Shown: one piece after another, positions 1,148 to 59,357 of the stretch
Layout: each line of letters starts with the position of its first letter
Numbering within the stretch: the stretch's first letter is position 1
From: Amoebophrya sp. A120
Lineage: Eukaryota > Protista > Dinoflagellata
NCBI GenBank assembly: GCA_905178155.1
Contig: CAJINV010000003.1
Location: forward strand, 888,035-952,034
Reading direction: 5' to 3'
DNA length: 64,000 nt
The notes under the pieces: model-generated
What the model was told of the DNA's origin: nothing
The model's input: only the letters and a program-made list of their open reading frames with translations
The model's database searches: none
Made by a program: the position numbers and the translations under genes

Positions 1148-4100
1148 ATGACTGTGTTCGAGGAAATGGTAAAGTACCATGCGGCCTGCATCCAGGAGCT
1201 ACCGCCCTCGGATCAGCGTGCGAAGTTTCAGCTCCAGGAGGACAAGTTGCTAACGCCTGCGTGGACCAACTTAATCGATGTTGTATTGCAGGGGATACCA
1301 CTCGATCAAGCGGCCACGACCGGTACAACAGGTGGAAGCAACAGCAACACTACTTCCATGGCCGTCGCAGCAAACGCTGCTGTTGTAGATATCACAGGTG
1401 CGTTCCCCACGACAACTATGAACGCCGGGAGCAGTAAAACAGCTACGAGCAACACAGGGCCCGACATAAGCAACTTCAGCCTTAGCAACGCCTCTCAACT
1501 GAATCCCCCTCTGGACGGGCGACAGACCAAATTTGTGATCGAATCCCTGCTGCACATGACAAAAAACCCTAATTCAAAGTCCTACCAGTACTTGCTGAAT
1601 TCTCGTAAGGAGAAGGTAATCAAGATCTGCGAAAAGGTGATCACTTCGTTTCTGCCGATTCTGGGCCTGCCTGGCCTGGGGGAGGAAACCAACAGACTCG
1701 TGCTTTTGTCGATGGAACTGTTAGCCAGATTCGACACCGCGGCGTTGGAAAAAATTATGCTTGCGAGCTGTATTTATTCCACTTGCTTCTGTAGTTTTTT
1801 ACTCCTATTTTCACGGAACAACATGCGTAACTGTATCGATTCGACTTTGATAGAAAATTGTGTACTTAGTATAATCTTACTTTGACTTCATTTACGAATA
1901 GCAACGGCAGAAGAATATGTGAATGTTGACGACAAGAAAGGATTCTTGCATGAGCAACATTTCGTTGACTGTACTAAAAATTCTCGAAGTTCTTGTCGCG
2001 CATTATTAAGTAAACCTTGGGACGAACCACAGGCACTGCCGCGAGCGCACTCCGCAACCAACCGGAGACGAACCACGCCGCAACAACCAACATGAGTCCT
2101 CACAACATATCATTGAACCGTAGCCACATTTTGTGCGTGACCCTGTCTATGGAGGCGGTTCACGCCGTGCTGAAGCGGCTGCACCCCTCGCAAGCGCCTC
2201 CACCCTGGAAAACGCGGCTCAGTTTCGCCAAAACGGCCGCAGAACTGGTACAGCATAGCGCATCCCCCTTCGCCTACAGCAGCTCGACGGGCGGCGGCGC
2301 AGACCACGGTGGTATCCAGCAGCAGGACGAGTTCGTGCTCAAAGTCGCCTGCGTCACCCTCATAGGAACGCTGATGCAGTGCTCGAAGCTGTTCGTCGAC
2401 GCGGATTTGCCCACGGCCGCACAGTTCGTCCCCGTGCTCATTCACCAAATCAAGCACACCGACTCCAGGAAAGTTTTCATCGAGGCGGCCTGGGCGCTGT
2501 ATTGATTTTTTAGCTTATAAATTTTTATTTTATTCTTTCAAACGGTGCCTGCTTAACGATGAACCTGAGATTTTGAGTTTTTGTGTCTATGCCAACATCT
2601 CCTTTTCGATAATACTGCCAGTACTTTTTGCCTGCAAATCGAATTCTCGTGTGGTTGCAGGTGAAGATCTCCTGCTGAAGTGCAGTATCTATGTCCGGCC
2701 TTCTCGTATTGTAATCGAAAAATATCGCAATATCAGGTCAAAGCTGACCTGCGGGAATCGGTTCGCCTGTGAGCACATGAGCACAAGTTTTTTGCTGGAA
2801 GCTCTGCAGTCATGTGCGGAGCAACAGAAGCCGGCGATTCGCCCCTTCACCGTGCTGATTCGTCGTATCGCGGGTCTCGCTGGGATAGCGGAACTGCTGG
2901 AGCGCTTCCTGCAGATGATTGAGCAGAAGAGACTGCAGCAGACAGGGGACCCAGCAGGAGCATCCCAGAACATCAACAATGCAGCAGCTGCTCCCGGGAG
3001 CAGTGCACTGTATCGGGAATTGGTGATGCACCTGTGCTGGGTGATCTCGGAAGACACCGAGGACGAGGAACTGTCCGCCGTGAAGGGTGCGAACGACGAG
3101 CCGACGCTGCGAAGATTATTGCAGGCGCTGGCGTCGGTGATTCAGGAGCACACCAACCCGGCTCGGTTTTCCGAGATGGTTGTCGAGGCCGGCGTCAAAG
3201 CCATCGCGAGACTGTATGGGAGTGTCAGGATCGAAATCGACAAAGTCGAAATCGAAAAATTTGTAATGCATAAAATGTAGGGCACGCAAGGCCTGTGTTG
3301 GGGAGCAGGCAAATCAGACCGATTGCAAGCCTGTTTAGGGGAAGACGATGCGCTGCCAGAGTAGCATGACAGGAGCAGTCCTCTTTGCCCAAACAGCATG
3401 ACAAGCTGGATTTTGTTGCTCCCGAAATTTGTCATGCGCCAGCTCGAAACTGGTGCTCCAACTGCTAGCGATTTTATGCATCACAAATTATTAATTTAGA
3501 TTTCGTTGATTTCGATTCTGGCAGTTCCATAGTCTGGGGGAACTGCGTATGGAGCCGCGCATCCTCCAGTTTCTGCGGGACGGGTTGAACACGAATTCCG
3601 CCAACATTCGCACGGCCACCCTGGAGGCGCTGTGCAACCTACTGCTGAAACAGCACCACCTGCTCTTCGTCCGCCAGGCGCCCCACGCCGCGGGGGACGC
3701 CACCGCCGCGCTGGAGGACATCCTGGCTCTCGTGAACAGCAATCTGGACGACAACACGCGCGCGACCAGTAAGGATGAACTCGGGTACTCGCTGCGCCTG
3801 CGCATCATTCTCGCCCCGCTCCGGGTGCGGATGGACAGTATCAGGACCAACACCTCCTTTGACGAACAGCAGTCGCGCTACTACCGCGAGGCCTTCCGAC
3901 GCGCAACCGACGCGATACTGCTGATGAGCACGACGGGTTCAAATGGTGGCCCGCAATGCGCTCATCATCTCCGCAGTTCAACATCATCAAATCGAAACAG
4001 TGGAACAACATCAACTTCGCAACCGCAAAAGACGTACTCCTCTGATGTAAACATAGAGGACGCCGCGTTGCTGCAGCAACTGCTGAGTTTTGGGTCCGAC

Positions 4101-16934: not shown

Positions 16935-19111
16935 ATGCAGCGTAACCCCAACGTCGAGGACGATCAGTTGACGAGTAGCGGAGGCTACGGGTCGCCCGGT
17001 CAACATCTGGGATTTCACTCGCCCCACGAGGGAGCGTTGACACCCCAACTACAGTTCGATTACAATGGCGTTCCCGTCGTGGTCTCCGAGCAGCCGCCGC
17101 CCAGCATCCGCGACGACCTGGAACGGCACCGCATGGAGCTGCGGCGGAAGATGGATCACGAGCGCGCACAGGAAGAGCGCCTCAGCCAGGAGATCTACGC
17201 GGCAAGTAAGACTTTCAGTGGAGCATCAAGCTCCTCGTCCTCCTCAACCTACAACGGTGCGGGCCTTGGCCTTGGCGGCAGCGGAGTTCTTGTAGGTGGA
17301 GCCTCTGCAACAACGTCGACCAGTGGCCGGCGGAGCAAGCACAGTTCCAAACAGCACCGGTCCGCCAGCAGCAAAACCACCACAGCCTCGCCCACCGGAC
17401 CCCCGCCACGCAGCGTGAGCACGACGACGTGGCAGGAGGACCAGCAGCACCAAATGTTGGAGCTGACGACCCAGGTGATGCGCAAAACCCGGTCCGAGGG
17501 CTTCTCGAAGCATGAAGGAAGGAGTATTGTTCAGGCCGACGAGAACCACTTGATGTTTGGCAACGAAATCGAGAATCACTTGCAGCACTCGGTGCGGGAG
17601 CTTGTAGATGAGGAGGCGGAATTATCCAGTGCAAAAGTATCGTACTCAGCATTACAAATTCCAGTTCTCATGCTAAGGAAATTTGTAATGCAATTCATAC
17701 TAGGTAGTATGTACGATCACGATGCTTTTGCAATTCATACAGATTTTACCGCTACAACCAGAGGGAGCTCGAGCAAGCGGAACGGCGGCAATTCGAGTAC
17801 AACCACAGCCAGCACAGCTACCAGAAAGGCGGCAGCACTTCCTCATCTTCCGGACAACTTACCACCAGCAGTAGTAGGGGTGCAGCGGTGAATTCGCAGA
17901 CCCCGGCGCCACAGCTGTGGGACCCGAGCTCCCCGGCTTTTTACGAGCAAAATGGGAACAAGAAGACCGTGTTTTCCTATCACGGCATCCAGATCCAGGA
18001 CCAGACCGAAGAGCACCGGGCGGGGAAGGAGAGCGAGCGTTCGGTGCTGCTAGTCGTGGTCGGTTTTCTCCTCGTGTCCCTCGCGATCGCCATCGTCGTG
18101 ATGTGGTGTGACCTGGCCAGCGAGGAGACGAAAACGCTGCATCGGTACACGCACTGGTGCTCCGCGGGGCTCATCGACTATCTACCAGCCTACTACGCGA
18201 GCTACGCCGTCATGACGTTCACCGTTATCTTGGCGCTAAGCTCCCGGCATCCCACGCTCCGCAGGGCCGTGCAAGAATTCATGGACGCGTGCAAGGCGAG
18301 GTAAGTACTTACTTGGATTCACTATAGGTTACTAGTCAACTTTTCTCACGCAAAAGCAAGTGCTCATCTGTGCAGTAGATGTAGCGATCTTCCTGCGTGG
18401 TTGCACATCACACACACACAGTTCCATGCCACATAAACATTTTTTTCATTTCCACGTAAGAACTAATTTTTGCATAAAGCGCAAGCATAAAGTGGTACAC
18501 AAAAATGACACTGCGAGCGCTGCTTAAGATGCTTCTGCTCCTTGTCTTATCTCGAGGTGCCTGCCGCACCGCTACCGAGCTCTGGACGACGATGGTGCGA
18601 ATGGCTACCCACCAATTACGCCATTCCCCACGGTCGCGTCACACAGGGAAACTCCGTTTTCTGCCCACGAGACCCCGCTGGGCGTATTCGAAGAGAAGAG
18701 GAAGAAAAAGAAAAAACACCACCGCGAAAAAAACAACTCCCATTCCGAAACACGCGAGAAGGAGCAGCTACACCAGGTACTGTGTCCTATTCTTACTGTT
18801 TTTCATGATGTTGAGATCAGTTGGCTTCTGCTTATCATCGTTCTTGCCTCCGTATGGAAGCAACTGTCCGAATGTTTGATCTTCATGTGCTGGAGGTGTA
18901 AGTGTACATCTACATCAATCAAAAAAGTGTATCTAAAAGAAAAACAATCGCCGGCACCACTGTTGAGAATATCTCCATCGTGCCTTAGACTTAGTCTTAC
19001 ACCTACTACTTACACAACACTTACTAGCCCTGAGTTTGTTTCTTCCAGCGAGATCATGCTCTGAAGCGTCTAATCGTCGACGTCATTTTTTTCGTAGAGC
19101 GGTTGCGGTAG
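16935..19111 (+). CDS. Hypothetical membrane protein with two hydrophobic segments; probable exons 16935-17620, 17743-18300, 18557-18776, 19049-19111
   Basis: Removing 122 nt around the element at 17623 shifts into the frame of ORF 17888 (EEAEFYRYNQRELEQAERRQ...). TM-like stretches are VLLVVVGFLLVSLAIAIVVMW and YAVMTFTVILAL. The last two exons rest on GT-AG phase compatibility only. Confidence 0.55.
17623..17739. mobile_element. Intronic TIR element, family A
   Basis: tatccagtgcaaaagtatcgt ... acgatgcttttgcaattcata. The flanking repeat is degraded (ggaat/cagat). Internal gcattacaaatt and aatttgtaatgc. Removing 122 nt restores frame. Confidence 0.8.
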
Positions 19112-19471: not shown

Positions 19472-22400
19472 ATGTCCTTGGAAACTAGCAGAACTATGGC
19501 GACGCACACAAATGCAGCAGACGGCCCGGGCCCCCCTGTCGTCCCTCTCAGCGCGTCCCGAAAGCTATTGGGGTTTCTGAATCGTATCGTTCCCTGTTCA
19601 ACCAAATGCTGTCCCCCTCCTGAACAGTCTTCGCGTAGCGAGCTAAACACTCGTCGCACACTCCACCTAGTCAGTGCGGAAGACTACAACCGACGGCATT
19701 CCCTGTTTGGGCCCGGATGCAGTCGCGCCGTGTCCTTTTTCGACGCCAATGACGGTGGATTGAACGTCGAGGAACAGACCGAGCTGCTGCTCGATTCCGC
19801 GATGTCAGTGGTTGTCGGAAATTTGGATTTGGGTCTATTGCCAGAAGATGACAACTCTCCCGGAAGGCAGAGCAGCAAAAGTCGCACCCTGGCTCGGTCC
19901 CGTCTGCGGCAATCCCTTTTCGGAGGCGACCTCTTCTTCGAGGATCTGGATCGCGCGCGACGAACAGGAACAGCCCGGAGATCGACGGAATTTTCTGACT
20001 TTCCAGAAATTAATACCACTGCCGCGGACCAAACGATAGAAAACGACGACGACGGTGATGATCCAGAGCAGCAGCTTTTGAACGCAGCCGCAGTCCGGGC
20101 GCTGCAACAGCAACAAGGTGGAAGCCGGGGTGACTCACAGAGCAGTGCGCTTTCGGGAGAAGATGGTCATCGGTTTCTGACCCCATACGGATCATACCAC
20201 CCTTCGTACGCGAGTAGTCTGGCACACCTTGCGGCCGAGGAGAAGCACGGACAGCTAGAAGGACGTCAGCAAGGGGATCAAGTTTTGTTGAGCCACGTCA
20301 ACTCCAGCACCTCGCTTGTACTGACCGACGAACATCAAAATGGTGACCCGTTGCCGCCTAGCGTCATGAGTTTCTATCCCCCGACTACAACGTGGCATTA
20401 CCACGAGAATGCGGGCTGCACCGATGGCGAAGACCTCGAGCGCTTCTTGTCGCCGTTGCCGGAACCCACCAAGCCGACGCGAAAGCAAAAGCCAAAGAGC
20501 AAGGAAGCGTCAGAGCGGACCAGTAAAGGTCGCGCAGCACACCGTGCAAACGCAAAGAGAAGCAAACAGGAAACCAGAGGGGAGCAGAGCAGCAGTGGGA
20601 TCATAACATCAACCACGACTGTGGCATCGGCGCATACAAGTAGCAGTCATGGGACCACAGCCAGTAGTAACAGCATCGAGTACGTCGAGCACGACACAAC
20701 TGATACTAGCGGCCTTGTCCATGGTGGAAGCACTACAGACCAACAACAACACCCTCCTGTAAAAATAACCTACCCTGTGACAGTTGTGCCTAGTCGTGAA
20801 CGCACCAGCTCCTGCCGCAAACCGCAAATCATTGCTCACATCCATTCCCATTCCTATGTCTCTCACACACTAGCATTCTGTCCTCTTGTTGATCTCAGTA
20901 GCGCGCTATCTATTAGACTCAGTCGCACCAAAACGACAACGTCATCAACGAGTCGTGGCTAAATATATTGGCACGTAGCGACGCTAGCGCCGAAGGTCAG
21001 GGTGAATGAAAAAGGACACGGGTCGAGGACGAACGCGTCTTTGGTCCTTACACCTCCAGATAAACCGTGCGTGAAGTGAAAGAGAAAGATGTTCTCTTTC
21101 TTTGAAATGCACACAATCCGATGCCAAACGAAATATCGAAAAAACAGATACGGCAAAAGACAGCGGACATCCACGGGCTGATGGCGTCGAAGATTGGGCG
21201 AAGTCCACTCGAGGAGCCTGATGCGGCCGCGCTGGAAGAAGCAGCGGCAAAAATGACAAGAGCCTTGTCCGGGAGCTCGCCGCCTGGCGTTGACGTGGCC
21301 AAGAACAACAGCGCTACAAAGGGAACCACCACTTCCACGGACGGCCAAGCGTCGCAAAAGCGCAGCGGTAGGAGGACCAGCAGGACGAACGACCCAACTC
21401 AGCGGGCTTTGAAGAAGGAACATCGCAAAATGAAGATGCAAGCACAGCAGCAGCAGCAGCTCCACCAACAGCAGCAGAGCGGGACGGCCAGCGGATTTGC
21501 GACGCCAGGGGCGGGACCAGCCACTGCGGGGCTGGATCTCTCGCTGCAACACGCGAGTCCAGTGTACAGCGAAAACGCCTGGGCCAGTTGCATGGGATCA
21601 TCAAGTAGCAGCTCCTCCTCCTCGAGCGAGTCCGAGTCCTCGGAGTCGGAAGAGGACGGTGGTATGAGCTGCAAAAGTATCGTACTAGTATGAATTGCAT
21701 TACAAATTGGCTTAGCATTTACAAATTAAATTTGTAATGCGGATTCGCCGTAAGAAAAAGATTTGTCATGCGTAAAAGCAATTAGTACGAGCACGATACT
21801 TTTGCACAGGATTGTTGGAGGAGACATCCAATTTCGCAACTTTCGGGGACTGCGCCCAGAAGTTCGCGAACAAGTCTTCCGCGAATTGAATGAAGGTACC
21901 AGCTTCACGTTTACGTTTTTCTCACGACTCGATACTAGATTTTGATTTCATCAATCTTCGATGGCCGCTGTTAAGGACTCGCATCTTCGGGCTTGTTCTG
22001 TTTGTAGTATTCGGCTTCTACTCAAGCGCAAGAACTCGAAGGCGAACCAGTTGACCGAAATTTTTCAAAGCCAAGGTGCCGACTACTTCTTTGATGCGAT
22101 TTTCAAAAATCTAAAACAGAGCAAATCCTGATAATTCGGGCACTCATCGAGGATTTGAGCCGCGGCGTGATCCAGCGGATACACCCTCAAATGACGCCAG
22201 ACAAGGTGGCGTCCTTCTGCCGCTTTTTCGGTGGTGCCGAGTGCGGTTGCATGCGGTTCCTCAAGGTTACCGGCTGGGACCGGCGCAAGGCCATGGAACG
22301 GATTACTAAGGCAACGTTGTGGCGCCACCACGAATATGGATTGCAAACATGTCTGGGTCTGGAAACATGGGACTTGTAATGCTAGTCCCACACTTCTGTA

Positions 22401-24287
22401 AAATCTGTATTGCATGATTAACAAAAAAGACGCCCTCTTTGGTCATACAAAAGCGCAGTTTCTCATGCGGAGTGAGCATGAGAGAGCGTTCTGCAAACTT
22501 GTCATGCACATGCTTGGCTGCATTGGGTAATACTTCAGCTATCCACAGTTCAGCATCACAAGTTTCCTGACCCAGACATATTTGCACAGGATAACGAAAT
22601 GCCGAGACTCCGCCAAACGTGCCGGGATGTGCTGGATGAGTTCAACGCCGTTCCGAAAGAAGCCGTGTTTCCTTGTACAGTTTTTTGTTTTCATCTTTTG
22701 GTGTAGTCTGTGTCAGCGTGGTCAACACAGCTGTTACTCCACCTTCATAAGGAAATTTATTTTTATGTGCGGAAAAGATCTAGCTTTCATGCTGCTCAAG
22801 AACACTGGTGGCCCTTCTTCTGATGTATTCTGAGACCTAGTATTTGCAGTTGCACTGACTTGCTGCCCAAGAACGGCCGCATAATTGTTCTACTAGGTGT
22901 CGGCAGCTACTACACAGACCGCGCGTATCAGGCGTACGACGGGTCTCCCGTGGAGTTCTGGCGGCTGTCCAAGATCAACTTTACGAAGCTGTTTGCGAAG
23001 TACACGGAGGACGAGTGCGAGCTCGCGTACGTAAACTACGTCCTGCGGAAGGAGGAGACCTGCCGTCGGTGCCTATGCATTGCAAAAGTATCGTACTACG
23101 TGGTAATTGCATTACAAATTCGCTTAGCATTACAAATGAAATTTGTAATGTGGTTTTACCTTAGAAAGGAGATTAGTCATGCATAACAGTAATTACTACG
23201 AGAACGATACTTTTCCAGAGCATAGTGCCGCGCGCAGGGCATTTTCGCGGTGATTGACTGCAAAAACGCGAGCGTGAGCAGCATGGTGTGGCAGGTCCCG
23301 AAGCTGAAGATCATGATCCGGTTATCCTGAGTAAAACCGTACCCACACCAGAGTTGTAATGCAGATTTGCAAAGACAGGAAGACCTGTAACGCACATCCC
23401 CATGAGAGCCATTTCCTATCGTGTCTCGGAATTTGTGATGCTGTGTACAGGATGAGCAGATGAATCTGTGATGCGGCTGCACTTGCTAACCTGCACTACA
23501 CTGCAGAGTGCAGCTTGTCATGCGTGACTCACAAAACTCCTCGGTTTGTGTTGCAAAATCCCCATCCTGACTCTGGTGTGGGTACGTTTTTACTCAGGAT
23601 ACCGGTTCATGGGTAAATACGGTGAGCAGTTTTTTCCGGATTCCATCTCCCGCGCGCTCGTGTACAATGCGCTATCGCAACAAAAAATTGTTACAGTTAC
23701 ACATTGTGTTGCAGGCCAAGCAAGACAGACAAGCTCTGCCATGCCGGATGTGCATAGGGGCCTCGTTTCATAGGTGTTTTCCCGTAGGATCTCTGCATTA
23801 CAAGTTTCCTCACTCATGCAGAGAAATTTGTGTTGCTGAATTCGCTACAAATGTGTAACTGTAACACTTTTTTCGTGGGATATGCGCCGAAGGGCGCCGA
23901 CTACTTCTGGAAGCTGTTCTCCTCCGTGTTAAGCGCCGCGACGATATGACCGTGCACAACTTGCCCTGCTGCTCTCCCTCATTTGAAGGGCAGGAAAAGC
24001 AACACAAGCAACAGTAGAAATAGAAAAGGGGCTCTCGCATGACAAATCTGCGCGCGGCTTGTAGTACTGTTGGATGAGGAGGTTCCGAAATTTGTCATGC
24101 AAGTAGTACTTACGAGCAAGGTGCGAGTTTGGTATTTTGCATTACAAATGAGCAGGGGGAGGGGGGTTGTGCACTCTCATAGACGAGGGAAAAAGTGCAG
24201 ATTGTCTCGACCGATGGCCGGGAGGAAATCTCGAAACTCATGGACCTCCGGATCGTCTCCCAACTGGAGCAGCTGCTGCCGGAGTGA
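19472..24287 (+). CDS. CRAL-TRIO/Sec14-like lipid-binding protein, paralog 1, with 3 GT-AG introns and 6 TIR-element introns
   Basis: After removing GT-AG introns 20759-21147, 21896-22119 and 22675-22896 and the elements at 21663, 22335, 23074, 23323, 23673 and 23945, the protein reads FFGGAECGCMRFL..WRHHEMPR..FPCVGS..YDGSPVEFW..EETCRRCRAQGIFAVID..MIRFMGKYGEQFFPDSI..YNAPKG..TREKVQIVS..LLPE*. This is collinear with the intron-free paralog at 25398. The join of the first exon is the least certain part. Confidence 0.8.
21663..21813. mobile_element. Intronic TIR element, family A
   Basis: tatgagctgcaaaagtatcgt ... acgatacttttgcacaggatt. Flanks are ggtgg/gttgg. The removed length is 156 nt and contains an in-frame stop. 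Confidence 0.8.
22335..22593. mobile_element. Intronic TIR element, family B
   Basis: tatggattgcaaacatgtctgggtctggaaac ... gtttcctgacccagacatatttgcacaggata. Exact acgaa repeats at 22330-34 and 22594-98. Removal gives WRHHEMPR, matching paralog 3 WRCVDLPR. Confidence 0.9.
23074..23224. mobile_element. Intronic TIR element, family A
   Basis: tatgcattgcaaaagtatcgt ... acgatacttttccagagcata. Exact gtgcc repeats. Removing 156 nt gives TCRRCRAQG. Confidence 0.9.
23323..23601. mobile_element. Intronic TIR element, singleton with 32-nt near-perfect TIR
   Basis: tatcctgagtaaaaccgtacccacaccagagt matches the reverse complement of the right end with 1 mismatch. Exact ccggt repeats. Removing 284 nt gives MIRFMGKYG. 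Confidence 0.92.
23673..23882. mobile_element. Intronic TIR element, family C
   Basis: tatcgcaacaaaaaattgttacagttacacatt ... aatgtgtaactgtaacacttttttcgtgggata. Exact tgcgc repeats. Removing 215 nt gives YNAPKG. Confidence 0.9.
23945..24181. mobile_element. Intronic TIR element, singleton
   Basis: tatgaccgtgcacaac ... gttgtgcactctcata. Exact gacga repeats. Removing 242 nt gives ATREKVQIVS. Confidence 0.9.
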
Positions 24288-25397: not shown

Positions 25398-27269
25398 ATG
25401 GCAACGACGAAGAAGAAATTCACAACCGCCGCTCTGCCTCAGGACGCCTTGTTGGTAGAGCAAGAGGTAGAGCGGTCAGTTGAGACACCGCCTCCGGCGC
25501 CGGAAATACCGCCAATCAAAATCGATTTTCATCGTGCTGGCCTCGGGAAGCTGTTCGGAGCTACTGGAGGTCCTGCTGCAGCTGCAGCTGCAAACAGCAC
25601 ATCAGCTAAGGACACAACCGCAACATCTAGCACTGCCGTGGACGAAGATGTGCACCAGACAACTAAGGACAAACACAGCGAGGATGACGGGGATAGTACC
25701 GCACGACCTCCCCATTCGGCAACAAGTTCAGCTAGCACCTCAAGCGGCAAGGCGTCGAGCATCTCCGCTAATATCGAAACAGAGCGTGAGAATAGCGCAG
25801 CGGCGCCTGCTCCTGGTGTCAACACGGAAACAAAAAACCTGGATGTGGATTATATTAACCAGAATGTTGACAGCAAAGACTCCTGGAGTAGCAAAAGCAG
25901 TCCGCACGAAGAGGTCGCGACGATCACGATCTCTGACGAAAGCATTAAAAATCTTTCCGCGTCGGTGGAGGAGAGGCAGCAGCAGGAGCACGAAAAAAAA
26001 GTTGCTGCACTTGAGTTCAACAACTTCTCTACCATGAACCCTTCGGTACGAGCGAACATTCTGAACGACCTTGACGCGAAGAAAATTTCTAGTGTCAAGC
26101 GGCTGATGCGCCAGCTGCTGGAAGCTGCGGAAAGAACCGCGGCCAAAAATGAGGAGCAGAAAAACGCAAAGAACAGCAAGCCGCGGCAAAAGGACCAAGC
26201 CGACAAGCACGACACCACTAGCCTGTCTACAGCGGAGGTCACATCCTTTGCCAAATTCTTTGGCGGCCTCGATGCGGGTTGCCTGCGGTTTCTGCGGGTG
26301 GCCCACTTTGATATAGAAAAGTCGCGCGAGAGGATCGTGGCAGCGACGAGGTGGCGAACGCACACGATCGAAAAAGACTTCGCGGGCGTAAGGAACATCC
26401 TGCGCAACAACCCGCGCTTCCAGAAACTGTTCTTCCCTTGTGTCGGGTCCGCGATCGTCTCCGCGAAAAACCCCCTGCCACCCGTGGATCTCGAGAACAA
26501 CGAAATCCTTTGCGGGTACGACGGCAGTCCGGTGGAGCTGTGGCGGTTGTGCAACGTGGATTTCGACACGATATTCTCGGAATACACCGACAAGGAGGTG
26601 GAGTTGGCCTACATCACCTACTGCTTGACCAAGGAGGAAACCTGCCGCAGGACGCGGTCCAAGAGCATCATTTCCCTCGTCGATGCGAAAGACGGACCCA
26701 GTCTGGCGTCCATGCTGTTCAAGCACATGGCGACCATCCACCGGTACACGCACTGGATGGCGGCGTACGGAAAAGAGTACTTTCCCGACAGCGTGACCAA
26801 GGTGATTCTCTACAACGCGCCGCCGGGGGCGGAATGGCTCTTCAACATGTTCAAGGGTCTCACGGTCTCCGACGTCGCAAGGGAGCAGGTAGTCATCCTG
26901 TCGGCTGGCATTCCCGAATCTTCGAACCACTACTGGCCAGCCCCACGTCGGGACCGAACGACGAGGACCAGCACCGGCTCCACAACAAGTACGACTTCGG
27001 CGAGCGATGGCACAAAAAATTCTTCAGTAAAATCTGGTGCGGATTTTACTGACTCGAGAAAAACCTCGACCACGGCGCAGCCTCCAGCATCTCGCGAGTC
27101 CTCGTCAAGAACCACGCGTATTTCGATTTCCGTGGCCACTTCAAATAAAAATATCGACACCCGCGCACTCGAAGAAATTCAAAAAGTTTTGGACTACGAC
27201 CAAGTCGTGCCAGAACTCTATCGAAGACTACCTGTCGTGAAAGACAAAGACAAGAAAGTCAAAGCATGA
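25398..27269 (+). CDS. CRAL-TRIO/Sec14-like protein, paralog 2 (intronless, 623 aa)
   Basis: Contains CLRFLRVAHFDIEKSRERIVAATRWR (CRAL N-terminal), YDGSPV, SIISLVDAK and EYFPDSVTKVILYNAP, the Sec14-type YP-E...iiNaP motif. Confidence 0.85.
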   Translation: MATTKKKFTTAALPQDALLVEQEVERSVETPPPAPEIPPIKIDFHRAGLGKLFGATGGPAAAAAANSTSAKDTTATSSTAVDEDVHQTTKDKHSEDDGDSTARPPHSATSSASTSSGKASSISANIETERENSAAAPAPGVNTETKNLDVDYINQNVDSKDSWSSKSSPHEEVATITISDESIKNLSASVEERQQQEHEKKVAALEFNNFSTMNPSVRANILNDLDAKKISSVKRLMRQLLEAAERTAAKNEEQKNAKNSKPRQKDQADKHDTTSLSTAEVTSFAKFFGGLDAGCLRFLRVAHFDIEKSRERIVAATRWRTHTIEKDFAGVRNILRNNPRFQKLFFPCVGSAIVSAKNPLPPVDLENNEILCGYDGSPVELWRLCNVDFDTIFSEYTDKEVELAYITYCLTKEETCRRTRSKSIISLVDAKDGPSLASMLFKHMATIHRYTHWMAAYGKEYFPDSVTKVILYNAPPGAEWLFNMFKGLTVSDVAREQVVILSAGIPESSNHYWPAPRRDRTTRTSTGSTTSTTSASDGTKNSSVKSGADFTDSRKTSTTAQPPASRESSSRTTRISISVATSNKNIDTRALEEIQKVLDYDQVVPELYRRLPVVKDKDKKVKA

Positions 27270-47171: not shown

Positions 47172-50100
47172 ATGTCGAAGGGCGCGGCAGAGGAGCCAGC
47201 GTCGGCCTCAACAGCTGGCGCTAAGACAAACTCGTCCACAACGATTGCAAATCCACCTGATCTCCCGACTATCGACGAGAACAGTACTGCACCGGTGGTC
47301 AGGAAACGGCTGGCGCCGAAACGCGGCGAAACACAGAACGACGAGGAGGAGCTCACGCCGGAGCAGCTGGCGGAGTACCAGCGACGCCAGAAAGCCGCCC
47401 GTCAGCGAAAAGTGTACCGCTCGGCGCTTTTTAAGGTCGGCGCATTCACGTTGATGGTGGTCGTGGCTTTGGGGGTGAAGTACGTGCAGGAATTCTTCAC
47501 AACCAAGTGGTGTGCGACGGTGTACGTGGACGAAAGCGCCGGGAGCTCAAGAACGTCTACTACTTCTGTGAACACGGACTTGTTTGTCCGCGTCGAAAGA
47601 GTGGACAACGAAGAGGACGGCGAGGCGCTGTGTCTGGACGAGACGGAATTCTTGGTGAAAATATCCACAGTAAATTTCCTGTACACGTACAAATGCGGTC
47701 TCTGCATGACAAAACTTCGCTCCGATCCTAGTTTAGCATGACAAGTTTTACATTCCATATTGCTGAAATTTGTGATGCATCTTGTTCTTGGCATGGTACG
47801 GAATAACAGCAGCTCCATCGTGATTGGCGTTTTTTCTCTACTTGAGCAAGAACTGCAACAACAACAAACAACACTCAACCGCTCAACTTCCGCAAAAGGA
47901 AGAACCTTCCTCGCAACTCATGAGAGGGGCCTTCTTGGTCTCCGGTCCTCGGTCCTCAGTCGCTCGCAAGGGAATACCTGAAGAGCTAAGAAGGTCGAAA
48001 GCTGAGACACATGAAAGGGAGTTTCTTGGTCTCCGGTCCTCGGTCCTCAGTCCCTCGCATGGTAATACATGACGAGATAAGAATGCAGAAAGCTGAGACA
48101 CATGAAAGGGGGTTTCTTGGTTTCCGGTCCTCGGTCCTCAGTCCCTCGCAAGGTAATACCTGACGAGATAAGAAGGTAGAAAGCTGAGACACATGAAAGG
48201 GGGTTTCTTGGTCTCCGGTCCTCGGTCCTCAGTCCCTCGCAAGGTAATATCTGACGAGATAAGAAGGTAGAAAGCTGAGACACATGAGAGGGGGTTTCTT
48301 GGTCTCCGGTCCTCGGTCCTCAGTCCCTCGCAAGGTAATGGCTGACGAGATAAGAAGGCAGAAAGCCCAGACACATAGGAGGGGGCTTGTTGGTCTCCCA
48401 TCCTCGGCCCCCAGTCCCTCGCGAGGCAATATATAAAGAGAGAAGAAAGGAGAAGGGGGACACACATGAGCGGGAGTCTGTTGGCCTCCGGTCCTCGGTC
48501 TGGACGCCCGCGAAAGTGCGGAGCTTTGTCGTGTGTTTTTTGTTATTTTTTCGCTCGCCAGTTACAGTTCTGGAGGAGCAAGTCGCTGGGGCCATGTCGG
48601 CCGCCATTGGAAGAATTCAGGCGCGAGCGCCCTTTTTCTTCTTCAGAGCTGTAGCACCGTTGAAGGCGATGGAGGTGCTATGAGCTGTCGCTGCGAAAAG
48701 CCGCCCGATTCTCTATGGCGAACGCACTCGATAAAGCTAGGGCCCCTGCGATCCTCCGGCGGCACACTCGGCCCAGCGTTGCTCCTCCTACGAAATCGCA
48801 GGCAGATCATCAACACCACCCCAATATGGCACCTCGTTCCTCTTCAAAAAAGCAGGAGTGCCGCAACAGTGGCAGCAGTCAATCAAGAGCGCTCTCGAAG
48901 GTCATTTTTGAGGATCTGCAGCGCTACGGTAGTAGCAGCCAGAAGAGCACCGCGGAGGAAATCAACCGCAATCGCGTTGGTTCTGAGGTCCTTCCCAAGC
49001 GAGCAGATCGGGAAGTTTAAAAGTGGCACCGTCGTCACAGCTTTGACGATCCCGATAATTAAATCAAGTTAAGAATCAGAAACAGGCAACACGGCATAAC
49101 GGGCGAGGTCCGGTCTCTAGAGTTATCCAAATGGATGGAGATGAAAGCAATGGGCCTTGAACATTTGACGCCATGCCCAGGCACGAGAGAAAAAAAGCGA
49201 GAAAGCTCTCCAAGCCAGGCGATCGGCCATTTGTTTTCCGTGGAAGTATTCTTCTGGGCTTGTCAAGTATCAGGCTCCTGCTTCAGCAGCAGCACCCTGC
49301 GGGCTTTACTACGGCTCTTACGAAGCGAAAGGGCCGAGCTGTCGCGGTTTGAGCAATGCCGTCGAGCAAGATAATAAGAGGGATTATGTTGGCGGATTGC
49401 AGTTCACTTCTCGGCTTTCTGCAATGTGCAGAGCGGAGCGCTCCCATCCTTTACAGCAAGTCCGCTACTTGCTCCAATATGACACAGATTGAGATAGTGA
49501 GAAGATCAACGCACCCTCCCACTTCAGACCAATTCGGCGCAGAAGATCAGCACCGCCTTCAAATGCATCCAGATCCGTTTTCTTATTCTACGACTTTCAT
49601 CCACCACGCAAGCCGGTTTTTTTTCATTTCCCAAAACCAAAGCAGGACAGGGAAGCTGATAGACTCACTTACAGCCCAGACCTCACAGCTCGGCGCATCA
49701 TCATCAGAACGCGCACGATCGGAGGCGGCGGAATTGTGGACGCAGATGTCAGGGCGAAAGTATATCTCCTCCCAAGTTGTTGACTAGTAGATTGCTTCCG
49801 AGGTGGCCCCTTTTCATTTCTACTCCGCCGACACTGGCAAAGAAAAGCGTAGAAGTGGAGCGAAGTGACTACGTGCGATCGAGTGAGAGAGCGAAACGGA
49901 CTGACTATGTGCGAAGAACAGCCCAGGAACAAAGGCCGCGACTATGTGCGAAGGAGTGGGAGACAGCGAGTCTAAGTGGGTAGCAAGCGAGTCGGGCACT
50001 GCCCTACTCGCCTGCCTGATGTCTTTCCGCAGCGCTCGCAGTCGAACTCTCGGCCAAGTTGGTCCGTCGCTGTTTTGACGCGACGGAACGAAGCAGAGGA

Positions 50101-53100
50101 CGCGCGCGAGACAGCGTCACTAGTCGGCTTCACTTGCCGGGCAAGCTTTCCCAAACCGACACTGGCTAAAGCGTAGAAGTGAAGCGAGGCGACTCTGAGC
50201 GAAAGAGTGGGCGAAGTGAAGCGACTACGTGCGAAGCACAGCCCCGGATCAAAGAGCGTGGCGGTGTGCGGCGATTTCTCGCCGTTTTGAGTTTGACGCG
50301 ACGGAGCCGAACGAGGTGGGCAGTTCCATTTGGGCGCCTTCTTGTGCCACCATCGTCGCCGGTGTGTGATGATGGTGCTGGTGTACATATGTCGAGCAAG
50401 AGAAGATCTCTCTTGCCACTCATGTCACAAAGAAACTCGGGCGCGCCGCGCAGATGTCGGCCAACGGCGCTCGCGTATATCGGTCACCGACCGGCTGAGA
50501 AGGCCGGCGATGTCTTTTGAGTTCGGTCCTTGGTGTACTTTTACACGAAGAAACTGCGCGCGCATTTGAATGTGGCAGGAGTTTCCGAAAGTCGGCGCGC
50601 CTATAAATACCTAGTGCCGCGCGGGGAAAACCTGTCCAAAAGCGTGCGCTCGTGTGCCGTAGCCCGAGCGCAGCGCCATCATCATCAAAATGCGGCAGGT
50701 TTTTTTCCAGCAAGCGGCGGCCTACAACGCTCCGGAGATTTCCTGCAAGCTACGGAGGCAGGCGGCAGGCAGGTAAGTTCCCTCGCGTGCAGCGACACGA
50801 GTATCAGCATCGCCTTGCTTCGCCACCTTTTGCTTTTTGCGGGGCCGCAGAAATGCTCGCCAACGGCCAACCCACGCACTCGCTGCGGGTCGCGCGGTGC
50901 TGTGATTTCACAGGAGGAGGCCCTGGCGCTGCTGCGCGTCTGTGTCGCTACTGGATCGATGTCATCAAGGATGTGCGGCTACTTGCTCCACATGAGTGAT
51001 GGCGTATCTATATGCGCGCGGGCTACTGACTGGCAAAATGCAGCCTTTTTTCGTAAGAGAACGCCACCCCCTTCGCTTCGTTCCAGCGCGCAAACTTTGG
51101 GCCATTTTGTAAGATTTCAGCTCTTTCCTACACTAAGAACGCAACACAGTCCGGCCAAATGGGCTCGCGCGCTGACAAGCCTGCCGGGCCGGGAGGGTAT
51201 TTGCCTGCCGCTCGCCGGACGTCGTGTCGTACCAACGGGCCGCCCGCCGCTGGCCAGACGGTGAACAACCAGGGACCACATTAGCAACGCTAGCAGCGCA
51301 GCCGAAAGGGGGGCGAAGCAAGCAGTTTTCAGCTACACGGGCCGGCTTTCGTCAGCGGCGGCATGGATGTCGTTGCGCACGAGGTCCCCCGGGGGGGGGT
51401 GCCGAAAGAGGCCGGCGCGTTTTTTTTTCGTTTTCCCATCCGGCCCGGCGGTGGGCAGTTGGCTACCCCTCGCAAGGGCCCTGAAGGTGGCAGCGGAGGG
51501 GGAACCAACGCCATCAGAGGAGAAGCGACGCGAGCTCGGCATGATCGCGCCGTCGGTCGAGAAAGATCTCTGGGCGCGCAAAACGGGCTGTATCCGGGCG
51601 CTGTAGCTGTACTGTAATAACAGAGCGGATGGAGGTCGACTTCTCAGACACAGCGGCATCGGCTTCGGAGCCACATGCGCCGGCGCAAAAGTGGGAACGC
51701 CAGTCGGCCCGCGTCTGGGACGGCAGCACAGCGGCTCGCGGAGTCTGTCGATGTGCTGCGAATCGCTGCAGCGGGCCAGCACTTTGCGAGGGAGGTACTA
51801 GCAACACCGGCGGGCCGGCTACCGGGACCGGAGGCCACAAACCTCCCTCATATGTGTCTGTTGTTTCTCCCTTCTTGTCCCGTCGCGTATTAATTGCCCC
51901 CAGATGAACTGAGGCCCGAGGACCGGAGACCATCGGCCTCCTTCTTATGTGTCTGGCGCTTTTGCCTTCTTATCTCGTCATATATTACCTCGTGACGAAG
52001 TGGGGACCGAGGACCGGAGACCAACAACCTCCTTCTTATGTGTCTGGCGCTTCTACCTTCTTATCGCGTCAAATATTACCTCGCGATGGAGTGAGGACCG
52101 AGGACCGGAGACCACCAGCCTCCTTCTTATGTGTCTGGTGTTTCTCCCTTCTTGTCTCCTCATATATTACCTCGTGATGGAATGAGGACCGAGGACCGGA
52201 GACCAACAACCTCCTTCTTATGTGTCTGGTGCTTCTCCCTTCTTATCTCCTCAAATATTACCTCGTGATGGAGTGAGGACCGAGGACCGGAGACCAACAA
52301 CCTCCTCTTTATGTGTGTCAAGTGTCTGCCATTTTATGTAGTGCGTTGCTCTACATGAGATTCCTTTAGGATCTTCTGTCGTTACTTTTTCAATTCCTTT
52401 TAGAGCACAAACACGAAACACGATGGAGCTGCTGTTATTCCGTGCCATGCCTTGTTCTTGTACATGTTGTACGGAAAATTTGTATTCCATAGAAAAACGC
52501 CAAAGCGTATCACGGACCAGCGTTCCTCGCGGATAAGGTGGTGCTCGACAAAATCGTGCAGGAGACCGCAAACGACGTCGACGCGGTGGTGGTCTCCGGT
52601 ATTCACCTGAAAGAGTGCGCAGCGGCGGCAATGCGCGCAGACCTGAACGCGGCGGAGAAAGCCGCGGCCTGCCGCACCGGAAATTTGGCGCAGGCAGTCG
52701 TGCTCTGCCACGGAAAGAGGCCAAGTATAATCTCAGTCTCACTGCAGCTTTTTTATCATTTGAAAGAAGCACGTGTATGCTACGACACTCGATACCGCTG
52801 TCGTTTTGCGCATTCTCTCGCGGCCGACACGGAACCCGAAAAAGTCTTCCTAAGTTGTCTCGTGACTATCACTATTTATCCAAGAAAAAAAAACTCCAGG
52901 ACTCCTGTCCTAAGTTGTCGTCGTCCTTACTTCGGAAAAAATGAAAACTACCTTTACAAACAGCGGCCGAGTGGGCACATCAGCGCATCAGTGACATTTA
53001 CCGGGACCACCGGATCAACCACTGGCTGCACATTGACATCGATTGGCGTAGCGACCCCGACCTGGTCGCCGATGTTGGGCGGTCAAAAGTTGAACTCGCG

Positions 53101-53856
53101 ACGCAGTACAAGCTCGTCTTCGCGCGCCGGTGTTATCCAAGAAAAAACACCCATCCCCATACAATTTGTCATGCAAAACATGCATCAAATCCACTATTTG
53201 TCATGCAAAAAATGGATGGGGATGGGTGTTTTTTCCTCGATAAGTGTCCGCTCGAGGCTATGGTCACTCCGGATTACCTCGGGCGACCCAGCGGAGGCAA
53301 GAAACCCACAGCCGCAAACACAGCGGTGTCAAAGGCCGACAGTGTCAGCGCAGCGCCGATCAAGTTTGTCCCGAACGCGAGGAAGTGGATTTCCTATGTG
53401 ACAGTGAAGAAAGCAGCAGATGTTGATGGTGCCGAAGTTGTTGACCATGCAGAACTCCAACCTGCGTCCATCGCTGCGATGATGCAACCCCGCAAGCTGA
53501 GCGACGCCGGAGAGCTACAGCCGGAAATCTACACGAAGCCCAAGCTGGTGATCGACAACTTGCTGTGGCTGGCCTGGAGGTTCGATTTCGACCCAGTCGC
53601 CTGGGTCAACAAGGAATTCCACCGCAATAAGACGGCAGAAGTGGCGAACGGGAACGGCACGCCTCGCTTCCACCTGCTCCGCTTCAACCTAGAGACCATG
53701 GAATTCGGAGACTGGAGTGAGGAATGGTTTTCCCAGAAAAAGACAGAATTAAACGCTGCCACGCAGGACGCGACAGACGTCGCAAAAGTCGAGTCAATAA
53801 AGGAAGAATGGGGCTGGACCCTTGACAGTTGGGCGGCAGCTATTGTCTACATTTGA
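47172..53856 (+). CDS. Hypothetical single-pass membrane protein, exons 47172-47661, 52497-52724, 52964-53133, 53248-53856
   Basis: TM segment VGAFTLMVVVALGV. Removing 4835 nt between the gaaaa repeats joins EFLVK-NAKAYHGPAFLADKVVLDK in frame. Further joins use GT-AG intron 52725-52963 and the element at 53134. Confidence 0.7.
47915..48500 (+). repeat. Left subterminal tandem array, 91-bp unit, about 7 copies
   Basis: gctgagacacatga recurs at 48001, 48092, 48183 and 48274. Core sequence is tctccggtcctcggtcctcag. Confidence 0.95.
51820..52320 (-). repeat. Right subterminal tandem array, 91-bp unit, about 6 copies, inverted relative to the left array
   Basis: gaccggagacca recurs at 51921, 52012, 52103, 52194 and 52285, and is the reverse complement of the left-array core. 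Confidence 0.95.
53134..53242. mobile_element. Intronic TIR element, singleton, shortest (109 nt)
   Basis: tatccaagaaaaaacacccatcccca ... tggggatgggtgttttttcctcgata. Flanks are ggtgt/agtgt. Two tttgtcatgc motifs. The removed length is 114 nt, in frame and stop-free. Confidence 0.85.
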
Positions 53857-56477: not shown

Positions 56478-56911
56478 ATAACAGCAAACTTATCGTATTC
56501 AGGACGACGAGGGCTGCACATTGCTACGCATACGCAGCTAGAGAAAAGATTTTGATTTTCATCCGAATAAAATTCGAAAGTTGTGTTGTCCGGCTGGCTC
56601 GGGCATCTTCATCTCCTCGTGAATTTCATACACACCGTCTCGTCGCAACTCGTGTATTAGATGTCGCATTTCGAAGTGCGTTAACTGAGTGTGGCGAGAG
56701 TCCATTTTTGAAAAATCGAAACCGCTGGTTGACTCGGAGACATCGAAGCTGCGGAAAAGTCGCATGGTTCGTAATGCGGGTCGTGGAATCGATGTACATT
56801 GTTGCGTTTTTCGTTTCTTTGGCGCACACCTCCAGTGATTGAACGTTTCTTGATGCTGAAGTAAAGCAAAAGCACTTGAACCACCTCTTGGAAAAAAAAC
56901 CTCTCACAATC

Positions 56912-59357
56912 ATGGGTGTGGTGTCACAATTTCTGCTTCCACCAGACCACGCCGGAGTCCCATCCTTGCCCCGACATGTCGCGGGAAAGAATTTCGAAGC
57001 AACTTCTCCCGGTCTTTCCGAAGACCCCTGGTCCCCATCGTCTTTGTGGACCGGAACCTCAGCGCCCTCGTCCTCGAGCGGGAAGAAAATTACCCTCTCT
57101 GTTTCCGCTCATCCGTTCAACGAAATAAAAAAGTCTGCTAGAAGTAGTTCTTCATCATTTCTAGACACGGTCGGCTCGCCCGCCAGGTCCGGCTCTTTCA
57201 AACGGATCCGCCAGCGGCTACGCAGTGGGCGGACGACACGGCTTTCGTCGCAAGATTTCTTCCCAACAAACGGCAGCGACGGGGGTTGTATGGTCACGAC
57301 GGCGCAAACAAGTGTTGGCAAAAATCTTCACGAGTCAGCAAATGGTACAGCGAAACCGAGCCAGCATGTAGCAACGAGCTTTTTCCCGACCGTTTCCCCG
57401 GACCTGGTATCTTCTCTGGTAGCCGGCACGGGCACTCAGGTCTTGCGACGCGGCACCGGCCAGCTGGCCAGGTACCTGTTTGGCGATCAAACCGCAGGCT
57501 CTAGTACAACTTCCGCGTTTGGTGTCAGCAGCGCCTTTCACCCGCTCAGCGGGGGAGGTACTATGGGCAAGAAGACGGCACAGCAGCAACTACACCAGAC
57601 TCGGTTGCTGGAGGGAAAACTCAGTGGAGGGCGTAGCAGCAGACACACCTCGTTTCTGTCCCTGGCGGAGAATTTCGGGGCCATCGGCATCTTCTACGGG
57701 GTCGGCATTTTGATGTACGGCTTCACGCCCCACGATCAGTGGTCCGACAGCTACTTCCCCGAGGACAAGGGAAAGCCGGGGTTGGTCGACTGTCTCATCG
57801 AGGGCGGCTACTACGCCACACAGGTTTTAACCACCATCGGCTACGGCGACGTGTACCCCAAGGGGAATTTTCTGCGCATCGTCAACATCTTCTACATCCT
57901 CGCGGGCGTCGGGGTCGCTGGCTCGCTGGTCTTGGGAACCATCACGGACCAGATCACCGACAGGTGAAAATAGTTTTAGATGCTGCAGGAGTTTCATGAA
58001 CTGCGCGGGCGGCTCAATTTTTCGTCGCCTAAGCACGCAAACTCCAGCTCCTGTCTCTCCCTGTTTTTGCTTGTTCGTTGTTTGTGAACAGATGTTATGT
58101 CCGAGCTGCATCACGTCGTTCTACTCCAGCAGATCGAGGTCGTGTAACTCTCATGCAATCATGATCGACAAAATAAAATTTCGTGCCACATCAACATTTA
58201 TTATATACCAGGGTGAAAGACGCCGAGAAACGGCAGTTGCTGGCCACGCTGACGGACGCGGGTGATCCGCATGGTGCGGGTGGTAGTATGGAGAAGCCGG
58301 AGCGCGACCGGCTGAAACGACGAATGGAAGTGACCGAGGGAATGCTACTCGTCACGGTGCCCACGCTGCTCGGGTCTTTGGTGTATGGAGCCGTGCACAA
58401 CTGGGGCGTCGCGGGGTCCCTGCACTGGGCCGTCGTAACGAACTCCACCGTATCAAATGCAAAAATGTCTGGGTCTGGAAGATTACGAGACTTGGCATGC
58501 TTGTCTGGGATGGCCAAAAAGCTTGTGATGCGTGTCCAAGAAGAGACTTTTTTGTCTTCCATGCAAAAACGCAGCTTGTCATGCAAAAGTCGCAACAAAA
58601 CGAAGCGCAGACATTTCTAATGCTTCGCTGGGCATTACAGAGCGTTCACTATTCCCAGCGCAGCATTACAAGTTTCCAGACCCGGACACATTTGCACTTG
58701 ATAAACCGTCGGGTTCGGGGCCTACAGCATCGACAACCGCGCCATGCGACTGTTCTCCATTGCCTACATGAATATCGCGGTCGCCAGTTTCGCGCTGGGT
58801 CTCACGAAACTCACCGGCGTTTTGTTGGACGTATTTAATATATCACGACATTGATTTTGATTCTGATTCATGAACATGATCAGTTGTCGCTCTTTTCTTG
58901 CAGCTATGCCTTCAGTTGAAAATTTTGTGAGAAAGCACAAAGTCAAGTGTGTCCATTGCCGCATGAACTGATGTGTAGTTCCCATGATCATGAGGCTTTC
59001 TTCTAGTTTCATCAGAGTTGTACTCGATGTGCATGAGTAACTTCTCCTCGCTTGAAACACGAACTACAGGAAGTACAAAGCAGCGAACTGGACCCGGACT
59101 CTGTCACGCTCGACCAAGCCTTGGGGATGGACAGCGACGGCGACAAGCGCGTGGACAAGTACGAATTTGCGACCGGTTGTCTCCTGTCCTGCGGCAAGGT
59201 AACGGAAACCGACATGACGCAAATCATGAACCGGTTTCGCCAACTCGACCGGGACGGAAACGGCTTCCTCACCATTGAGGACCTCCCGGGCCAGTCGCAG
59301 CAGGGACAGACGCAGCCGGAAACTACACGACAGCCGACCGGGGCTGCTGCACAGTAA
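56912..59357 (+). CDS. Two-pore-domain K+ channel with two C-terminal EF-hands (TPK-like), exons 56912-57963, 58212-58450, 58709-58830, 59070-59357
   Basis: Pore 1 is LTTIGYGD. Pore 2, NSTVGFGA, appears only after removing the element at 58451. EF-hands are DSDGDKRVDKYEF and DRDGNGFLTIEDL. GT-AG introns are 57964-58211 and 58831-59069. Confidence 0.88.
58451..58703. mobile_element. Intronic TIR element, family B
   Basis: tatcaaatgcaaaaatgtctgggtctggaa ... ttccagacccggacacatttgcacttgata. Flanks are caccg/aaccg. Removing 258 nt restores TVGFG. Confidence 0.9.

Follow-up and report, generated by a model that had tools for sequence, protein, structure and literature searches.

An end rule and a phased internal motif shared by non-GT-AG introner families of Amoebophrya sp. 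A120

The introners of the dinoflagellate Amoebophrya sp. A120 (i.e., non-canonical introns with inverted and short direct repeats) were described by Farhat 2021 (PMC7789003), who divides them into 1,954 families with variable repeat positions. Their repeat motifs are given there as TAT, seven loose bases, and at least three As, with direct repeats of 3 to 5 nt (the legend of Fig. S19 holds a 5-bp example), and U1 was not found in A120. In Gozashti 2025 (PMC12130899; 56 of the 58 A120 rows), one family, fam38, is annotated "Ginger; 5-bp TSD, TA/TA Termini" (TSD, target site duplication); in the rows of the other families, the automated TSDs are mostly 2 to 6 or NA, the superfamily is mostly "Unknown," and no common rule appears. 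The spread and removal of two-thirds of the A120 introns have been a puzzle; general mobilization by a transposase was excluded in the original paper, which gave no explanation of how these introns are spliced. Here, we analyzed 15 such elements in a window of 64,000 nt of A120 (contig CAJINV010000003.1, positions 888,035 to 952,034; coordinates below are window based, and elements are named by their first position), together with held-out loci. The rule that they follow is TAT at both ends, C or G preferred at position 4, AAA at positions 11 to 13, and a fixed 5-bp repeat. The elements also share an internal motif, GCAWNACA(A), whose copies are spaced in phase with the DNA helix.

The introner system of A120 is already published, and the added grammar apparently is not. 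The sequence-only reading of this window had left it open whether its precise rule was in print. Parts of it are: the TAT start and the AAA, along with an example of a 5-bp repeat (PMC7789003), and a 5-bp TSD for one family (PMC12130899). A universal rule was not found. Published statements of a universal 5 bp, of GCAWNACA(A), of 10.4-bp phasing, or of insertion in either orientation were likewise not found in a search that left most of the subscription literature outside, and the logos of Farhat 2021 could show part of this grammar.

Ends, repeats, and removal of the window elements

The sequence-only reading had described 15 insertions in coding exons, and its counts held. All 15 start with TAT(C/G), and 14 end with (C/G)ATA, the exception being GATT at 21813. 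The 5-nt flanking repeat is exact in nine elements, carries one mismatch in five, and carries three mismatches in one (17623). Deleting an element plus one repeat (i.e., its length + 5) restores the frame in 15/15 cases, while retention would cause a frameshift or a stop in all but one (53134). None of the nine exact-repeat elements has a register with both GT and AG. The terminal inverted repeats (TIRs), which had been called unrelated between families, are not wholly so: they share G at position 9 and AAA at positions 11 to 13, and the internal motif is present in all 15 elements. Among the 30 window ends, 29 have TAT, and A occupies positions 11, 12, and 13 in 26, 28, and 28, respectively.

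A scan for TATS..SATA pairs of 100 to 500 nt with a repeat matching at 4/5 positions or more and a TIR matching at 13/20 or more returned 11 pairs in the window, whereas all 30 Markov simulations gave 0. With the TIR condition dropped, there were 25 pairs versus a simulated mean of 6.9; the TIR therefore carries the significance of the window pattern. An intronless CRAL-TRIO paralog supplies empty sites, to which the junction peptides of 23074, 23323, 23673, 32418, and 32948 align gap-free at the junction. It is one of three adjacent CRAL-TRIO-like paralogs (21121 to 33469), which carry 6, 0, and 4 introners, respectively. All 15 elements lie in coding exons, and a rough hand map puts the coding share of the non-element DNA at ~62% (chance, ~0.0007), which suggests exon-biased insertion or retention. 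Neighboring elements are frequently only 40 to 90 nt apart.

Seven of the 11 listed sequencing runs were mapped to the window (X1, X3 to X6, X9, and X10). Runs X3 to X6 come from two samples of one study and are called RNA-type here, their RNA label being a guess; X1 is the sole DNA-like run examined (flat depth, ~43), and the raw RNA runs X9 and X10 placed two and four reads and were uninformative. Joints from 47656 to 52492 (skip, 4835), from 53129 to 53244 (skip, 114), and from 58446 to 58705 (skip, 258) each occurred in all four RNA-type runs. These skips equal element length + 5 exactly in the three elements directly examined, and the contigs with these joints (46900 to 59500) also lose three GT-AG introns. 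In record 14 of X3, the pieces ending at 32411 and starting at 33099 are separated by 60 letters, which equal 32883 to 32942; because these letters are the exon remainder, 32418 and 32948 were each removed with one repeat. Two further X3 contig pieces are compatible with the loss of 21663 with its left G kept (a piece stopping at 21659, with 219 letters beyond) and with the loss of 23945 (a piece starting at 24182, with 255 letters ahead). The claim that these are non-GT-AG introns, to be checked by RNA across the predicted junctions, is thus borne out by exact loss of element plus one repeat in 5 of the 15 elements (three directly and two by arithmetic). Where the repeats are mismatched, the left base is retained at position 1 in two elements (53134 and 58451) and probably at position 2 in one (21663), and so the cut falls after repeat position 1 or 2.

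The same joints would also arise if the elements were excised from DNA in the expressing life stage, as internal eliminated sequences are, and splicing were merely apparent. The TA-like ends, the TIRs, the precise loss of one duplication, and a motif phased to DNA would all fit this explanation. The X1 contigs run on 22 to 208 nt into the elements, unbroken at the junctions, at 8/8 listed flanks of this one DNA run, and no exact-skip joint occurs among the 15 listed of its 292 joints. Low-depth RNA-type contigs also contain element sequence. On this evidence, we consider DNA excision very improbable. The X1 depth over elements reaches ~80,000, a value that is not to be taken as copy number.

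The end rule and internal motif in held-out loci

The held-out set comprised 59 metagenome loci (146,813 bp) retrieved with a pattern built from the 23323 TIR, each sharing at most 350 nt with the window. The set is skewed, with one family group providing 54 of 141 elements in the interior-defined family count. A scan that disregarded both TAT and the repeats (336 inverted-repeat diagonals; 8,595 offsets per repeat size) found a perfect repeat together with TATS at both ends 90 times for 5 nt, compared with 2, 1, 0, 1, and 0 times for 3, 4, 6, 7, and 8 nt. A second caller, which used end positions 9 to 28 alone, gave 136 unique paired elements and 82 ends without a partner (31 of them near locus edges). 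TAT was present at both ends of 124 of these elements and TATS at 246/272 ends; in non-query families, position 4 was C or G at 140/160 ends. The 5-nt repeat was exact in 107 elements, had one mismatch in 20, and was worse in 9, some of which are register errors or possibly misassemblies. The enrichment of TATS/SATA ends with 5-nt repeats that the sequence-only reading expected beyond the window was therefore seen in these loci.

Reading frames point to the same length. Deletion of length + 5 left an open, well-scoring frame at 95/117 junctions, versus 39 to 46 for + 3, + 4, + 6, and + 7. Read in transcript orientation, the end logo is the same at the 5' and 3' ends, and the insertion sites show little sequence preference. 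Left-right identity at end positions 4 to 8 is only 0.41 to 0.71. Repeat mismatches divided 22 to 3 between the transcript sides with junction-level strand calls and 16 to 6 with locus-level calls (P = 0.05; held-out loci alone, P = 0.30). Across 111 elements of the window and held-out loci, the TAT starts are spread unevenly over codon phases 0, 1, and 2 (33, 53, and 25). Elements L044:125-403 and L045:684-925 have unrelated flanks, which are probably misassemblies across repeats; the latter element interrupts a reading that we take to resemble an SMC C terminus, followed by unrelated sequence. In two pairs of loci (L013/L021 and L014/L024), the insertion is shared and the genes beside it are nearly identical; these are recent duplicates or two alleles.

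The motif GCAWNACA(A), on either strand, occurs in all 15 window elements, where it was found post hoc, with 44 matches in 7,992 bp of elements versus 5 in 56,008 bp outside; the four RNA-supported canonical introns of the window contain none. It recurs in 133 of the 136 held-out elements and in 17/17 interior-defined families. A de novo motif, GCATGACA, was recovered in 12/12 held-out end groups, with 192 matches versus a simulated mean of 4.3. In the parts of the held-out loci that do not resemble elements, there are still 0.51 matches per kb, probably from uncalled elements. In alignments of 43, 29, and 15 copies, deviation from the family consensus was 3.4% for the motif, 0.6% for TAT and AAA, and 23% for the other interior. 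We rejected a branch-point role for the motif (GCAUNAC contains UNAC): among 90 strand-called elements, 22 have no copy on the sense strand, and 53134 is spliced even though it lacks a strict copy.

The motif copies are spaced periodically. Same-orientation pairs peak at a period of 10.4 bp with phase 0, and opposite-orientation pairs have the same period with a half-turn offset; the phasing strength (R) is 0.46 to 0.58 at 10.4 bp versus 0.24 to 0.35 at 11.0 bp. When the period was scanned, 5 of 500 null layouts reached the same-orientation value. With the period fixed at 10.5 bp, it was reached by 0/400 null layouts for the 17 families and by 0 to 2 of 400 for a merged version of 11 groups; the families may have a common ancestry and so are not fully independent. 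Motif pairs 31 to 33 bp apart occur in 10/17 families, versus 0 or 1 in five other 3-bp windows. Tandem duplication as the source of this spacing was rejected on flank identities of 0.11 to 0.50 (mostly 0.2 to 0.4). A lattice of 16.3 bp appeared for same-orientation pairs only (R = 0.35 for the 17 families and 0.46 for the merged groups) and was rejected as a general period because 10.3 to 10.4 bp fits all three orientation classes. Measured from the element ends, the phasing is weaker (39 and 263 of 5,000 null layouts). Element length modulo 10.4 gave no signal, and element ends scored as degenerate motif copies did best at offsets 4 to 5, yet below zero. The helical turn is ~10.5 bp in B-form DNA and ~11 bp in A-form RNA. 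Since the peak lies at 10.4 bp and not at 11.0 bp, the motif is likely read on DNA.

This DNA phasing, found together with one motif and one end logo across 17 families, argues against explanations in which the families spread via RNA, through reverse splicing or a retro-integrase that uses cDNA, or through several unrelated enzymes, with the 5 bp imposed by selection through a splicer that always removes length + 5. Under such selection, 2-nt and 8-nt repeats would be tolerable, yet an 8-nt repeat occurs in 1 of 136 elements, and no poly-A or long terminal repeat structure was seen. That single copy, of the 279-bp family (L005:1496-1775), has an exact 8-nt repeat and is in frame, a point in favor of these explanations; deletions of + 5 and + 8 give the same frame, as a fixed-ruler model would allow. 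Farhat 2021 favors a copy-paste process (PMC7789003), and homology to a Copia-type integrase is reported for A120 family 38 (PMC12130899). Taken together, we regard these explanations as quite unlikely.

The elements insert in both directions. Strand-called copies of the 279-bp family run 22 one way and 14 the other relative to the gene, and their four motifs are all forward or all reverse, following the copy; 23673 and 29469 form such an opposite pair within the window. Alignment shows that 47662 is a 151-bp introner of the 32948 family split by a nested element. Its listing as one insertion is right in its ends and exact repeat, and its 4,830-bp length is owed to the nested insertion. To the right of this insertion, 40 nt of native introner sequence are left, and removal is still exact. 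Because removal is orientation blind and extends to a 4.8-kb nested intron, the splicing signal is confined to the ends, which opens it to straightforward reporter tests. No published statement of a 4.8-kb nested, exactly spliced, non-coding introner was found in the literature search.

The nested element contains no copy of the shared motif, and 14 of its open reading frames (ORFs) yielded no Pfam match above the cutoff; none of its ORFs scores like host coding sequence. Hence 47662, the sole long element in the window, is not the long TATS-ended element with a transposase or integrase that the sequence-only reading had suggested searching for, and it was rejected as an autonomous partner since its long part is a nested non-coding insertion. 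The GG/CC termini and an 8- to 9-bp TSD are those of Mutator-like elements, which is not diagnostic alone, and no MuDR-like transposase or homology was found in the 14 ORFs. Low-depth contigs that differ from the nested element by ~1% suggest that further near-identical copies exist. Conceivably, the "Mutator introners" that have been published for A120 are nested insertions of this kind.

Recent changes were used to ask which parts of the elements are constrained. The singleton rate in family alignments is 0.57% for TAT and AAA versus 1.86% for the interior. This deficit, the identical 5' and 3' end logos, and the exact removal next to only 40 nt of native sequence would fit a single protein that recognizes the TATS ends (or else the DNA motif array) when it inserts the elements and again, co-transcriptionally, when it marks the splice sites. 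The motif sites, however, show no deficit of recent changes (1.64% versus 1.86%), the TAT deficit differs between families (0/258 versus 3/174), and the calling procedure itself favors TAT. TAT is missing from one end in up to 12 of the 136 elements, in some of them through a miscalled register, and 21663 ends with GATT. Single changes within TAT also occur in elements whose repeats stay intact. This one-protein explanation is, in our view, improbable. Of the earlier proposal of one machinery, the insertion part stands: the repeat counts and the shared phased motif make a single insertion machinery with a fixed 5-bp stagger likely. For removal, TATS would be at most a candidate signal: position 4 is a mere preference, changes in TAT are tolerated, and the conservation of TAT is at most weakly above the recent background.

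Table 1. Introners, nested element, and control features of the window
Feature	Coordinates	Strand	Evidence
Introner, 317 bp; repeat GACTG/GTCTG, 1 mismatch; 4 motif copies; frame restored	3215..3531		
Introner, 117 bp, of 150-bp family; degraded repeat GGAAT/CAGAT	17623..17739		
Introner, 151 bp; right end GATT; repeat GGTGG/GTTGG	21663..21813		
Introner, 259 bp; exact repeat ACGAA	22335..22593		
Introner, 151 bp; exact repeat GTGCC; gap-free junction versus intronless paralog	23074..23224		
Introner, 279 bp; TIR ~30 bp; exact repeat CCGGT; high-copy family, held-out query	23323..23601		
Introner, 210 bp; exact repeat TGCGC; family of 29469, opposite orientation	23673..23882		
Introner, 237 bp; exact repeat GACGA	23945..24181		
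Introner, 211 bp; repeat CGGGC/CGGAC, mismatch at position 4, synonymous	29469..29679		
Introner, 251 bp; exact repeat TTGTC	29733..29983		
Introner, 466 bp; exact repeat CTTCG; absent from RNA by length arithmetic	32418..32883		
Introner, 151 bp; exact repeat ACTTG; absent from RNA by arithmetic; short form of 47662	32948..33098		
Non-canonical intron, 4,830 bp; 151-bp-family introner plus nested element; exact repeat GAAAA	47662..52491		RNA joint
Nested TIR element, 4,662 bp; GG...CC ends; 8-bp duplication TTGTTCTT	47790..52451		
91-bp tandem array, left, inside nested element	47916..48500		
91-bp tandem array, right, inverted relative to the left one	51825..52342		
Introner, 109 bp; repeat GGTGT/AGTGT; removed though retention stays in frame	53134..53242		RNA joint
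Introner, 253 bp; repeat CACCG/AACCG; potassium-channel-like gene, upstream exon with Ion_trans_2	58451..58703		RNA joint
CRAL-TRIO paralog without introns; empty-site control, outside the system	25398..27269	+	
GT-AG intron, canonical, in transcript of 47662 and 53134; motif-free control	52725..52963	+	
Further canonical GT-AG control introns	57964-58211, 58831-59069, 30949-31124		

Elsewhere in the window, an intergenic block at 38130 to 39960 (~65% GC), which contains no ORF of coding character and resembles neither other window sequence nor the held-out loci, is possibly another mobile element. A 19-bp tandem repeat lies in intergenic sequence at 62626 to 62739. An Rfam search and a scan of viral contigs gave no matches.

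Candidate mechanism of insertion and removal

We propose, with a probability of roughly 0.65, that the introners are non-autonomous, MITE-like TIR elements (MITE, miniature inverted-repeat transposable element) that a single integrase-like DDE transposase, acting in trans, mobilizes all of their families, and that they are removed from RNA by a hairpin-guided, U1-independent machinery. The transposase would read each DNA end (TAT, the C/G preference at position 4, and AAA at positions 11 to 13) as well as the GCAWNACA(A) array placed on one helical face, and its cuts in the target would be staggered by 5 bp, with the target sequence mattering little. A single trans-acting enzyme appears likely by analogy with the cooperative binding of internal motifs in the Emigrant MITE. 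The 5-bp stagger, along with the Copia/Gypsy-like ORFs that have been reported for A120 family 38, makes integrase-like chemistry the leading candidate. In the pre-mRNA, TIR positions 9 to 28 would pair, and the removal machinery would measure a fixed distance from the stem and cut within or beside the repeats; with symmetric ends, either orientation and several kilobases of nested cargo would be tolerated. Predicted folds contain a stem within positions 9 to 28 in 14/14 cases (weakest in 32948 and short in 23945), and positions 1 to 4 (TAT) are often unpaired in them.

The elements are not canonical U2 introns, since they lack GT/GC-AG ends and directional signals. Of 88 exact-repeat elements, 3 allow GT-AG and 1 allows GC-AG in some register, and 23 have neither GT nor AG in any register. 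Local canonical donors begin with GTAY in 10/16 cases (read by eye) and with GTAT in three of the four with RNA support. As N|UAU resembles these donors and A120 reportedly lacks U1, our best single guess for the catalyst, at about even odds, is the major spliceosome in a relaxed form, for which N|UAU would be equivalent to the local GUAU donor. A Euglena-like, non-spliceosomal removal, in which the terminal stem would be processed by a dedicated endonuclease and ligase and the freed RNA would be linear or circular, seems unlikely to us. Such a route has precedent (PMC12501133 and PMC11282704) and would suit elements that are orientation blind, that include the 23 without GT or AG, and in which no strand-specific branch motif was seen. 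It is disfavored by the identity of TAT with positions +2 to +4 of common local donors, by the absence of the Euglena CDG/CHG signature from the end logo, and by the U2, U4, U5, and U6 and the 83/89 spliceosomal proteins reported in A120 (PMC7789003).

Several points weigh against the proposed transposase and hairpin-guided removal. No transposase turned up in A120 in the work of Farhat 2021, where mobilization by transposases was rejected as a general explanation (PMC7789003); we found none either, and the sole long element of the window is non-coding. Ginger elements end with TGTNR (PMC2836005), and those analyzed here end with TAT. The motif was discovered post hoc, and its 10.4-bp phase could come from nucleosome positioning, DNA bending, or the layout of a single ancestor. 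Support from RNA spans 5 of the 15 window elements in two samples of one study under a guessed label, and the splicing of held-out copies is read from frames rather than from RNA. The putative spliceosomal step is argued from donor resemblance by itself, and the cut position is compatible with more than one site in the repeat.

The added grammar conflicts with the published rejection of transposase mobilization, and it makes both the enzyme and the splicing route testable. With the 5-bp rule and the phased motif, the ~2,000 published families would collapse into a single candidate system, and a defined bait for the enzyme would be at hand. For annotation in this lineage, "element plus one repeat" can replace the ambiguous GT/AG boundaries chosen by aligners. 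More tentatively, all TAT-ended introners may be clients of one undescribed integrase-like transposon system, its binding code (TAT, AAA, and the helically phased GCAWNACA array) being legible in the sequence, coupled to an orientation-blind ruler splicing that removes exactly the element + 5 nt up to several kilobases, a possibility that we hold with less than even confidence. If true, this would be a self-erasing insertion system for exons, both halves of which are open to pull-down and reporter assays.

Comparison with described systems

Euglenid nonconventional introns (PMC12501133 and PMC11282704) have a MITE-like origin and lack GT-AG, as do the elements analyzed here, and they place the cut at a fixed spacer from a paired motif, as is proposed here; the terminal stem joining their ends has a counterpart in the predicted folds (14/14). 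Their signature, 5'-N3CDG…CHGN5-6|R, is absent, with no conserved CDG in any register, and the ends here are fully symmetric. The introns of Fritillaria borealis are also MITE derived, with TIRs and TSDs at species-specific sites, and they are reportedly excised by the spliceosome (via PMC11282704). AG-AC/AG-AT ends dominate among them and TAC is the preferred target, in contrast to the little target preference observed here.

Among transposons, the Ginger2/TDD group resembles these elements in its TIRs and in the 5-bp TSDs found for TDD-4 as well as TDD-5, within the 4- to 5-bp range given for Ginger elements (PMC2836005); the consulted passages of that source do not present Ginger elements as introns. 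The Emigrant MITE and Lemi1 (PMC1636448) provide a precedent for a transposase that binds repeated internal motifs cooperatively in addition to the TIRs. Unlike the elements described here, they belong to the pogo/Tc1-mariner group, are from a plant, and are not introns.

Within A120, fam9 of Gozashti 2025 (2,231 copies; 278 bp; TIR, 30) resembles the 23323 family, by size only, and fam65 (GG/CC; 8- to 9-bp TSD; Mutator) resembles the nested element, by end type only (PMC12130899). Compared with the introners in PMC7789003, the mean length is ~240 nt there versus 256 nt for the held-out elements, removal is supported by RNA in both, the GC content is 51.2% versus 52.4% in the window, and genes are co-oriented in both. 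The text of that source, as far as it was available, contains no internal motif, phasing, or orientation test, unlike the present analysis. Short, non-coding, bounded by TIRs and a TSD of fixed length, and present in high copy number, the elements have the features of MITEs. They likewise have those of the A120 introners, i.e., RNA-supported removal with non-GT-AG ends, a TIR of TAT, 7 nt, and AAA, a 3- to 5-nt repeat (here 5), and genome-wide families.

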